From the IMG/VR virus record IMGVR_UViG_2681813321_000001, positions 1-4,125 of that record: a stretch of 4,125 bases of DNA. One strand, 5' to 3'. Positions 1,784 through 4,125 of this stretch are shown piece after piece (position 1 is the stretch's first letter; every line of letters starts with the position of its first letter). The position numbers and the translations under genes were made by a program. Below the pieces are notes generated by a model. It did not search any database. It saw only the letters and a program-made list of their open reading frames with translations, and was not told the DNA's origin. Source of the DNA: a virus. Its lineage: Duplodnaviria > Heunggongvirae > Uroviricota > Caudoviricetes.

Positions 1784-2142
1784 TTCTTATTCTCCGGTGC
1801 TTTTGGCATTACTGCCCAGTGAGTGATATTGACGTTTTCAAGGTCCCCGACCTGAAATGTCCACTGCCATTCTCCGGTTTCTTTTTGTCCCCAGGTGTAC
1901 CAGAGAGAACGCCAGCCAATCAGCCAGCCTTCTCCGTTAGCATCAAATAACAGAACACTTTCATTTGCTGGCGGCAGTTCAGCTGACACTGGCATTATTT
2001 TGTTTTCCAGTGCCGCACATTTAGCTTCAAGCGCATCGAATTTACGTACCAGGTACTCAGCATTTGTTTCATTCACTTTCAGATCTCGCGGTACACATTT
2101 CCCGCGAAGAAACCCTTCCATTTCGAAAACATTCATGCGCAT
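1780..2142 (-). CDS. hypothetical prophage protein (120 aa); by position and length the yfdS-equivalent gene, with a DUF551-like C-terminus
   Basis: ATG at 2142..2140 with GGAG ~9 nt upstream; overlaps the yfdR stop (2135..2133) by 10 nt. It lies immediately downstream of yfdR, as yfdS does in CPS-53 as I recall, and has the same length. The C-terminal ITHWAVMPKAPE resembles the THWMPLPEPP ending I associate with DUF551 phage proteins; this needs a database check. Confidence 0.6.
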   Translation of the reverse strand: MRMNVFEMEGFLRGKCVPRDLKVNETNAEYLVRKFDALEAKCAALENKIMPVSAELPPANESVLLFDANGEGWLIGWRSLWYTWGQKETGEWQWTFQVGDLENVNITHWAVMPKAPENKK

Positions 2143-2669
2143 TTGCGTAACTCCGATAACTCGTTAAAACGTTCCATAAACATCCCGTAGGCATGGCCTG
2201 GTGACAGTGGAATAACTTTGAACATCTCTGTTGCCGGGATGCCTTCCAGTACAGGCCAGAAAGAGCCATCATCAAGCCCGAGATCGCGGCGTTCGGTTGC
2301 CAGCATAATGAGATCGGCATATTTCACTGGCGTGCTCATAACAGGAGGTAACCCGTATTTCTCACGGATTACGGCGTCTATTTTTTCTTCCATCCGTTTA
2401 TAGTCAGGAAGAAGTCGTTTCAGTGGCGCGGGGATGTCCTGGCAATATGCTTCTGTTGCATCATGCATTAACGCTTCAAAAGCAAATTCCTGCGGCACCA
2501 GCTGGCTGCAAAGCACCGCATGCTGGGCGACACTGTAGAAGTGTGAAAGATGTCCTGCAAAGCGACAGATATTTGAAAGGGAAACTGCGATATCGTTAAT
2601 CACGATGTCGTCTTTATTTATCTTGTCATAATAAAAATGCTTCCCGGAAAAAGTTTTAATAAATGACAT
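2133..2669 (-). CDS. yfdR: HD-domain phosphohydrolase, YfdR-like (CPS-53 prophage), 178 aa
   Basis: The protein starts [21 protein letters not shown] and carries HD-superfamily motifs (AGHLSH, then LMHDATEAY, then downstream Asp residues). The track ORF starts 9 codons earlier at a GTG (2696) that is itself part of the Shine-Dalgarno GTGGAGAAC; the ATG at 2669..2667 with GGAG 8 nt upstream gives 178 aa, the length I recall for E. coli K-12 YfdR. Confidence 0.85.
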   Translation of the reverse strand: MSFIKTFSGKHFYYDKINKDDIVINDIAVSLSNICRFAGHLSHFYSVAQHAVLCSQLVPQEFAFEALMHDATEAYCQDIPAPLKRLLPDYKRMEEKIDAVIREKYGLPPVMSTPVKYADLIMLATERRDLGLDDGSFWPVLEGIPATEMFKVIPLSPGHAYGMFMERFNELSELRKCA

Positions 2670-2918
2670 TTTGTTCTCCACGTATATGCACTGCACCGCG
2701 CTGAATTCTGGTAAAAGGAAGCCCTCACCATCCGGTGATTATTGAGTTAATTACGTTTCCATAAATGCCCCCGCAGGGGCATTTGCAGTAATGAAATCAG
2801 GCGGTGAAAGTACCAATAAAGGTTTCTACTTTGCTGTCTTTGAATTTCTCAACAAGCAGATCACGAAATTCGTTAGCCATTTCTTCCTGCAACGCTTCCA
2901 GCTGAATAATGCGCAGAA
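2246..2918. repeat. tandem direct repeat, copy 1 (673 bp): yfdR 5' two-thirds, yfdR leader/intergenic, and the 3' end of the yfdQ-like frame
   Basis: Direct comparison with 2919..3592: about 99% identical (6 substitutions plus one 1-nt indel). Begins with CCAGTACAGG (2246-2255). Confidence 0.9.
2763..2784 (-). promoter_or_regulatory. perfect 9-bp inverted repeat (AAATGCCCC / GGGGCATTT, 4-nt loop) in the yfdR leader; possible weak terminator, attenuator or processing stem-loop
   Basis: Read directly from the sequence, 13-34 nt downstream of the chimeric ORF stop and ~95 nt upstream of the yfdR ATG. On the transcribed minus strand the stem is followed by AUUUAUGG, only a short U-run, so not a strong canonical intrinsic terminator. 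Confidence 0.35.
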
Positions 2919-3342
2919 CCAGTACAGGCCAGAAAGAGCCATCATCAAGCCCGAGATCGCGGCGTTCGGTTGCCAGCATAATGAGATCGGCATATTTCAC
3001 TGGCGTGCTCATAACAGGAGGTAACCCGTATTTCTCACGGATTACGGCGTCTATTTTTTCTTCCATCCGTTTATAGTCAGGAAGAAGTCGTTTCAGTGGC
3101 GCGGGGATGTCCTGGCAATATGCTTCTGTTGCATCATGCATTAACGCTTCAAAAGCAAATTCCTGCGGCACCAGCTGGCTGCAAAGCACCGCATGCTGGG
3201 CGACACTGTAGAAGTGTGAAAGATGTCCTGCAAAGCGACAGATATTTGAGAGGGAAACTGCGATATCGTTAATCACGATGTCGTCTTTATTTATCTTGTC
3301 ATAATAAAAATGCTTCCCGGAAAAAGTTTTAATAAATGACAT
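2797..3342 (-). CDS. chimeric ORF from tandem duplication: YfdR N-terminus (141 aa) fused in frame to YfdQ C-terminus (40 aa), 181 aa
   Basis: The 5' part (3342 down to ~2929) is nearly identical to yfdR 2669..2256 (1 synonymous difference); the 3' part (2918..2797) is nearly identical to the last 122 nt of the gene at 3592..3471 (1 non-synonymous difference, Leu vs Val). The join falls in the shared 10-bp CCAGTACAGG, which encodes P-V-L in both parents. It has the same RBS and ATG context as yfdR (GTGGAGAACGAAATG). The HD motifs lie in the retained N-terminal part. Whether it is expressed or functional is unknown. Confidence 0.5.
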
Positions 3343-3592
3343 TTCGTTCTCCACTTTATATGCGCTGCACCGCGCTGAATTCTGCTAAAAGGAAGCTCTC
3401 ACCATCCGGTGATTATTGAGTTAATTACGTTTCCATAAATGCCCCCGCAGGGGCATTTGCAGTAATGAAATCAGGCGGTGAAAGTACCAATAAAGGTTTC
3501 TACTTTGCTGTCTTTGAATTTCTCAACAAGCAGATCACGAAATTCGTTAGCCATTTCTTCCTGCACCGCTTCCAGCTGAATAATGCGCAGAA
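2919..3592. repeat. tandem direct repeat, copy 2 (674 bp)
   Basis: Begins with CCAGTACAGG (2919-2928); the same 10-mer recurs at 3593-3602 immediately after the copy, giving three occurrences at every repeat boundary. Differences from copy 1 (copy-2 coordinates): 3250, 3345, 3355-3356, 3364, 3385, 3397, 3566. Confidence 0.9.
3437..3458 (-). promoter_or_regulatory. second copy of the same 9-bp inverted repeat, downstream of the yfdQ-like stop
   Basis: Identical sequence to 2763-2784, displaced by 674 bp as part of the tandem duplication. Confidence 0.35.
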
Positions 3593-4125
3593 CCAGTACA
3601 GGACGATCGCCAGTGATAATGCTGAGGCGTAATTTAAACGGACGTTCTTTCAGGCCTTCAAACGGAACGCATTTAAATTCAAATGCCACTGGCATAATGT
3701 CTTTGGTTTTCGCTTCGACAGACTCCATCAGGGAGCGTTTGCCGCTGAAGTCATTGTCTTCAAAATCAGCGGTCTGGTTTGCTTCAATTGTGATTTTACG
3801 GACTGCCGCAGCCGCTTTGGTTGCCTGAATGGTGTCACCATTAGCATCAAAGCCCACAAGGTAGTCGGCCCAGTCTTCAATCCATTCTGCCAGTGACTTC
3901 TGGGAGTTACGCTCGCCATTAACAGACAACAGAGCAGAAAACGGTGCTGTCTTTTTCAGTTTGAGGGTGGCGGTGTTATCTGCGTGACCTGGTTCATCAA
4001 TAGTACCCAGGTTAAGCACACTGACGGCTCGCATATTATCGGCATCGATAAAGCAGCGGGTGCCTTCATCTGCAAGATCTTTAGAATAACGGGTAAAGTC
4101 ATCGATGCTGGCAGTGGAAAGCGCA
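3471..4125 (-). CDS. yfdQ: YfdQ-like prophage protein (DUF2303 family as I recall), 5'-partial; upstream neighbour of yfdR
   Basis: The reading frame is open from the window edge (4124) to TGA at 3473..3471, at least 217 codons. The track start at 4034 is only the first in-frame ATG; the frame continues upstream with no stop, so the true start is outside the window. Assignment rests on position immediately upstream of yfdR plus size (K-12 YfdQ is 274 aa as I recall), not on a verified alignment. Confidence 0.7.

Follow-up and report, generated by a model that had tools for sequence, protein, structure and literature searches.

A 673-bp tandem duplication on a 10-bp direct repeat in a lambdoid prophage region, with an in-frame yfdR–yfdQ hybrid reading frame

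Bacteria are known to undergo spontaneous duplications and deletions in which direct repeats about 10 bp long or longer mark the endpoints (PMC3411829). In the rearrangements described for Salmonella, the copies lie head to tail, a short direct repeat marks the junction as well as either end, and the endpoints share no other homology (PMC3411829). The window analysed here, a stretch of 4,125 nucleotides of viral DNA taken at its full length, contains an array with these same properties, the repeat being 10 bp long. However, whereas the Salmonella events were observed in a rare subpopulation (PMC3411829), the array of the window is part of an assembled genome; moreover, its copies differ by a block corresponding to another natural allele, and its junction lies in frame between two genes.

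In genes, gene order and spacing, the window resembles the prophage CPS-53 of E. coli K-12 and the mEp460-like lambdoid phages, and its flanks are 99.4–99.7% identical to mEp460_4F5 and to prophages adjoining zur/dinF. CPS-53 and the mEp460-like phages possess one yfdQ and one yfdR gene with nothing between them, as the first-pass annotation had correctly stated for K-12, whereas the window has an additional, hybrid ORF. YfdR is an HD-domain protein which binds DnaA, and over-supply of YfdR and YfdQ together with YfdS or YfdT inhibits the initiation of replication; deletion of the gene cluster left hydroxyurea resistance and the regulation of initiation unchanged (PMC4776307).

All genes of the window are on the minus strand. 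In the direction of transcription, yfdQ is followed by a 128-nt spacer, an ORF of 181 codons, a 127-nt copy of the spacer, yfdR, and seven small phage ORFs to which no function was assigned. The yfdR gene (2133..2669, minus strand) codes for a protein of 178 amino acids belonging to the HD-domain 5'-deoxynucleotidase family; a protein identical to it is on record for thousands of assemblies. The yfdQ gene (DUF2303; 3471..4125, minus strand) is represented by its last 217 codons and the stop codon, its N-terminus being located past the window end. The claim that both parent genes stay intact thus holds for yfdR, and for yfdQ over these 217 codons, which is the extent of the gene inside the window.

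A direct repeat search of the window returned two pairs, 2246-2545/2919-3218 (100% identity) and 2683-2928/3357-3602 (98%), with a spacing of 673 and 674 nt, respectively. They form one tandem array of two head-to-tail direct copies, 2246-2918 and 2919-3592, which are 98.8% identical and agree with the boundaries first proposed. Tandem Repeats Finder gave no output for this 673-nt array, the longest period covered by the program being 500. Copy 1 (2246..2918, minus strand) comprises yfdR codons 1-141, a hairpin-containing leader of 127 nt, and those 40 codons of the hybrid ORF which derive from yfdQ. Copy 2 (2919..3592, minus strand) comprises codons 1-141 of the hybrid, a hairpin-containing leader of 128 nt, and the genuine 3'-terminal 40 codons of yfdQ.

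The decamer CCAGTACAGG occurs exactly three times, at positions 2246, 2919 and 3593. The first occurrence is the native yfdR site (2246..2255, codons 139-141, P-V-L) and the third is the native yfdQ site (3593..3602, likewise P-V-L, 43 residues from the C-terminus), while the second, at 2919..2928, constitutes the novel junction, yfdQ-derived on its low-coordinate side and yfdR-derived on its high-coordinate side. All three ORFs, yfdR, the hybrid and yfdQ, read the string in frame 0 (CCT GTA CTG), so the placement of the boundaries on a shared P-V-L-encoding sequence was borne out; comparison of the array flanks detected no more similarity beyond it. In the collapsed single-copy yfdR–yfdQ segment, about 0.9 shared 10-mer pairs are expected and two were observed, CCAGTACAGG being one of the two longest direct repeats of this region. 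The existence of the pair is hence unremarkable, and the telling point is the exact coincidence of the novel junction with this repeat; ten matching bases at a blunt, homology-free join would have a probability of about 4^-10. The chance of an in-frame outcome is one in three.

Both native sites, 673-674 bp apart, were found in 19 of the 22 single-copy relatives compared, including K-12, which indicates that the substrate for such a duplication is common. With the decamer at the junction as well as at either end, and with both sites in single-copy relatives, the earlier proposal of microhomology-mediated illegitimate recombination gains support. We consider it probable that one illegitimate duplication of 673 bp at CCAGTACAGG took place in a prophage and that the hybrid is its by-product. 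The setting would be an E. coli strain with a lambdoid prophage, mEp460-like and related to CPS-53, in which a single RecA-independent event doubled the segment between CCAGTACAGG in yfdR and CCAGTACAGG in yfdQ, by replication slippage, template switching, or unequal exchange of sister or co-resident molecules. Due to the same reading frame at both sites, the junction would have attached the C-terminal 40 residues of YfdQ to residues 1-141 of YfdR, to give the new transcript order yfdQ – hybrid – yfdR, each with its own copy of leader, hairpin and RBS. The intergenic part of copy 1 may have taken the allele of a related prophage by homologous recombination, either later or in the same event.

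The duplicated leader contains few recognizable signals. A GC-rich hairpin of 8 bp (2764..2783, minus strand; AUGCCCC-UGCG-GGGGCAU on the RNA) is situated just 3' of the stop codon of the hybrid ORF, and its twin (3438-3457, minus strand) lies 3' of the yfdQ stop codon. Compared with shuffled sequence, the predicted fold of the duplicated spacer is not significantly stable (z -1.2 to -1.6). Searches against Rfam identified no known RNA in the whole window, duplicated leader included, and a promoter scan of positions 2000-4125 revealed no sigma-70-like site. Since the relatives show the gene order repressor, then yfdP-yfdQ-yfdR and so forth toward the integrase, we infer that the hybrid is located in the early-left operon of the prophage, where it would be co-transcribed with its neighbours and, given this location, expressed mainly upon induction.

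Among 5,426 complete E. coli genomes, NZ_CP148277.1 contains the closest relative of the window, a prophage adjoining zur/dinF. Its corresponding region measures 3,452 bp, compared to the 4,125 bp of the window, and is thus single-copy; if copy 1 is removed from the window, the two sequences differ at 6 of 3,452 sites. Besides K-12 CPS-53, all 33 other relatives fetched are single-copy, as are the closest phage records, mEp460_4F5 and phiSTEC1575-Stx2k, and three neighbouring proteins that were looked up occur in single-copy contexts only. A junction query of 120 nt had to be dropped, because its halves, which lie 683 bp apart in single-copy genomes, were joined by the search and produced thousands of spurious matches. 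We therefore used a junction probe of 46 nt (18+10+18 nt), which passes the E-value limit only on a contiguous match. This probe had no match in the 5,426 complete E. coli genomes or in the plasmid collection, whereas a native probe of the same design, used as a control, matched 2,381 of the 5,426 genomes. Exact searches for the junction 28-mer GCGCAGAACCAGTACAGGCCAGAAAGAG in species-representative genomes, metagenome contigs and viral contigs, and for a junction 22-mer in species-representative genomes and metagenome contigs, were likewise negative, and the duplication junction was not found in the phage collection.

At the protein level, exact look-up of the hybrid in its 181-aa and 185-aa versions returned no record, and a search of 5.8 billion protein clusters showed no such hybrid among the best 120 matches listed; in this set, near-identical proteins did not exceed a query coverage of 78%, and all matches with higher coverage were YfdR homologues of 59–68% identity. 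The reciprocal 673-bp deletion junction was also searched for and not found, and hence nothing marks the CCAGTACAGG pair as a recurrent hotspot. Public data contain this duplication only once. The copy number of the segment in other genomes, which the first-pass annotation had proposed to check, was one in all the relatives fetched, and its suggestion that the duplication may be strain-specific stands as far as public data show, with no second instance in any collection searched.

A singleton junction also calls to mind an artefact, in which each prophage would carry one yfdQ–yfdR unit, and the array, the divergent patch, or both would stem from mis-assembly, mis-polishing or a chimeric template. 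As a variant of this explanation, the source possibly harbours two related prophages with different alleles, whose paralogous reads were mis-polished; indeed, many E. coli genomes contain 2-5 copies of the yfdQ–yfdR module, which makes a patch of that kind plausible. However, the overlaps used by assemblers greatly exceed 10 bp, and a junction exactly on a rare 10-bp repeat shared by both genes is a biological signature (PMC3411829). Moreover, a small duplication of a comparable kind was seen in an independent genome. GCA_900449155.1 contains a perfect 49-bp tandem duplication in yfdR (L017:5531-5628) which frameshifts the gene; the 9-bp repeat GCTTTGCAG marks its two ends as well as its junction, and the GCTTTGCAG pair is present in the window, too. 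This case and that of the window thus have in common that yfdR is affected and that a short direct repeat marks both ends and the junction, but in GCA_900449155.1 the duplicated segment is far shorter, the copies show no differences, and yfdR was inactivated with no hybrid gene arising. Considering these points together with the allele pattern described below, we regard an artefactual origin as unlikely.

Other rearrangements of the two genes are found in public assemblies, namely deletion fusions of yfdQ and yfdR and a 33-residue internal duplication in YfdR. The fusions P0011, P0024 and P0033 resemble the window in that they code for in-frame fusion proteins of yfdQ and yfdR. However, they are deletions which connect the N-terminus of YfdQ to YfdR, whereas the duplication in the window connects the N-terminus of YfdR to the C-terminus of YfdQ and keeps the parent genes. 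Taken together, these additional yfdR/yfdQ rearrangements suggest ordinary mutational churn in prophage accessory genes. The type of event is already known, and its mechanism is textbook.

The two copies are not exact duplicates. They differ at eight positions, comprising seven substitutions and one indel, and six of the eight differences crowd into a 52-bp part of the intergenic leader (random placement, p about 3e-4). In this cluster (2672..2723), copy 1 has T, a 1-nt gap, G, A, G and C in place of the C, T, T, G, C and T of its counterpart in copy 2 (3345-3397). The description of the locus as a plain tandem duplicate is correct with respect to the array, but it overlooked these eight differences and their clustering, and the history thus goes beyond a single simple slippage. 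Among the relatives, the yfdQ–yfdR spacer falls into two allele groups, an A-type, which is K-12-like, and a B-type. The spacer of copy 2 is of the B-type, the same as in the nearest single-copy relatives, and copy 1 contains the A-type block (2672-2723) in an otherwise B-type unit. A stretch of 86 bp around this block is present with 100% identity in many genomes, and in 294 records with at least 99% identity; a similar mosaic occurs in the single-copy NZ_CP171869.1.

Since the copies differ in a clustered block that corresponds to a natural allele, the array is neither a fresh exact duplication nor a simple assembler copy; a duplicate made by an assembler would normally be identical or show scattered errors rather than a 52-bp block of natural-allele sequence. 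A mis-polished patch may still be compatible with the clustered pattern. The cluster at 2672-2723 is probably a gene-conversion-like patch from the other allele, and the duplication was probably followed by, or made through, recombination with a related prophage. The simplest reading of the sequences would be duplication in a B-type prophage and a subsequent short conversion tract from a co-resident related prophage. If real, the allele patch would be a sign of fast short-tract exchange among related prophages.

RecA can act on a direct repeat of 673 bp and collapse it. Persistence of the array until such a patch was acquired is therefore somewhat unexpected, except if two different alleles had taken part in its formation. 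The different natural alleles on the two copies would be accounted for if the array had arisen in a single step from two molecules that were not identical, such as a resident prophage and a lambdoid phage, infecting or induced; phage recombinases may have assisted. Lambdoid prophages with the yfdQ–yfdR module are mosaic and often co-resident. However, outside 2672-2723 the same B-type haplotype extends through both copies and both flanks, and a short internal patch suits conversion better than a single crossover. In addition, the exact parental combinations are absent from the 5,426 genomes, the best matches being 99.4% identical for the left flank plus copy 1 and 99.8% for copy 2 plus the right flank. 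We consider this one-step route unlikely, and return to a duplication within one prophage as the probable origin of the array.

The hybrid ORF (2797..3342, minus strand) codes for 181 amino acids, made up of YfdR residues 1-141 and the C-terminal 40 residues of YfdQ. Its first 141 residues are identical to those of YfdR, the remaining 37 residues of which are replaced, and its tail differs from the C-terminus of YfdQ by a single change (L151 instead of V). As in yfdR, a GGAG ribosome binding site is located 6 nt 5' of the ATG; the stop codon is of the yfdQ type. Coordinates, RBS and the lengths of the three segments had all been given correctly beforehand. The two yfdR-derived copies show a single coding difference, which is synonymous (L31, CTT/CTC).

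The invariant residues H40, H50, H69 and D70 as well as the nearly invariant D129 are all inside residues 1-141, and the hybrid accordingly retains the HD-motif residues (H...HD...D) of YfdR and of the Atu1052-like HD-domain phosphohydrolases. In the Pfam YfbR-like family it scores 26.5 bits against a cut-off of 25.9. In NCBIfam NF003009 (YfbR equivalog, 5'-deoxynucleotidase), for which the cut-off is 122 bits, the hybrid and native YfdR reach 23.6 and 19.9 bits, respectively; as judged from these scores, both proteins fall outside the YfbR equivalogs, to which YfdR is only distantly related. The score in Pfam PF10065 (DUF2303) is 25.9 bits, below the cut-off of 26.6, and the match is limited to the final 38 of the 269 profile positions; by this measure the hybrid would not be counted as a DUF2303 member.

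The HD fold of the hybrid is not complete, as the C-terminal segment and helix (142-178) are swapped for 40 unrelated residues of YfdQ; the match of the hybrid to PHROG 318 ends at residue 143. The lost YfdR tail contains G143, P154, P157, F164, R167 and F168, which are invariant or nearly invariant in homologues down to about 60% identity, and aligns with PDB 2GZ4 (Atu1052, a solved relative) as far as residue 175. The model of native YfdR has a pLDDT of 87.5, a confident helix at 157-177, and a TM score of 0.82 to 2GZ4 over the full length, whereas the model of the hybrid has a pLDDT of 63, with values <50 in the tail as compared to 83-96 for the same segment of native YfdR. Both proteins were modelled from the same shallow alignment of 25 sequences, in which the tail of the hybrid was paired with non-homologous residues; for native YfdR four of the five models were also poor. 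The comparison is thus only suggestive of an impaired fold of the hybrid.

With its conserved C-terminal helix lost and its model poor, the hybrid is most likely a neutral or defective by-product. The idea that a domain-swapped HD variant is newly forming here finds no support, since the 37 residues that were lost include invariant positions and a confidently modelled helix of the fold shared with PDB 2GZ4, and the model of the hybrid is poor. Selection of the duplication for gene dosage was considered and rejected; it is unlikely because the duplication brings no additional intact yfdR or yfdQ.

An alternative view is that the hybrid is a selected, functional HD/DnaA-binding protein with a C-terminal YfdQ segment, which alters the control of prophage or host replication. 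The intact in-frame ORF with full RBS and leader, the presence of all HD-motif residues in 1-141, the synonymous nature of the lone coding difference between the yfdR-derived copies (L31 CTT/CTC), and the binding of DnaA by YfdR along with the joint action of over-supplied YfdQ, YfdR and YfdS/T (PMC4776307) would be in line with such a role. However, conserved elements of the fold are gone and the model is poor, there is no second occurrence in any collection, and one synonymous change is far too little to suggest purifying selection. Moreover, one in three fusions would be in frame by chance. Hence we regard a selected function as highly improbable. It is equally hardly to be expected that the hybrid is stably kept and expressed, with the HD/DnaA-binding core of YfdR joined to a strand-helix-strand from the C-terminus of YfdQ. 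If this were true, the hybrid would physically link two parts of the YfdQRST inhibitor of replication initiation or exert a dominant modifying effect on them, and a stably kept hybrid would represent the birth of a new gene by duplication and fusion, caught in a prophage.

Viewed as the probable by-product of a single duplication, the array does not reveal a new system; its value is that of an illustrative case and of a possible strain marker. If real, it would be a clean natural example of a chance repeat of 10 bp giving rise to an in-frame hybrid gene while both parents remain intact. Duplication-fusion events of this type are raw material for new genes, here in a fast-evolving accessory region of a prophage.

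At another relative locus (L017; GCA_900449155.1, UGBS01000001.1, which shares its record with L026), yfdR contains a perfect 49-bp tandem duplication (L017:5531-5628) that is bounded by the 9-bp repeat GCTTTGCAG, with copies at 5531, 5580 and 5629, and that shifts the reading frame past about residue 54. The window has the same pair of 9-mers at 49-bp spacing (CTGCAAAGC at 2506/2555), which is repeated in copy 2. Public assemblies also contain, as assembled, a putative YfdR variant with a 33-residue internal tandem duplication (protein P0001) and three different putative in-frame yfdQ-yfdR deletion fusions (P0011, P0024 and P0033).

In the yfdR-type leader of copy 1, a 9-bp hairpin (GGUGAGGGC...UUUUACC) is predicted, and two allele-patch differences (2711/2723 in copy 1 vs 3385/3397 in copy 2) fall on opposite sides of it. 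Since this hairpin is absent from the predicted fold of the copy 2 leader, the two leaders may differ in folding. The yfdQ-type codon in the context ...LEA[X]QEE... (window 2892 in copy 1, 3566 in copy 2) has three alleles at its first base: copy 1 reads TTG (Leu), copy 2 reads GTG (Val) and the nearest relatives have ATG (Met). Each of these is also a possible start codon. The A at 2892 appears to be private to the window, because the best 120-nt matches reach 99.2%.

The small ORFs downstream of yfdR, all of which match PHROGs of unknown function, follow each other with overlaps of 4-10 nt (window 2133-2142, 1780-1783, 1580-1587, 1348-1351 and 1097-1104), among them the overlap of a 120-aa YfdS-like ORF with yfdR. 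Short overlaps of consecutive ORFs are a typical feature of phage early genes with translational coupling.

Many of the closest relatives share one chromosomal site, beside zur, yjbJ (CsbD), dinF and lexA (loci L001, L008, L015, L021, L025-L027, L030, L033 and L034). The annotation of L001 places a partial tRNA-dihydrouridine synthase gene at this site, which suggests prophage integration into dusA. Several E. coli genomes (matches H8-H11, H13-H14 and H18) carry a yfdQ split by IS1 or IS600-type insertions, as at L027:4230-5386, a further sign of decay of the module in many lysogens.
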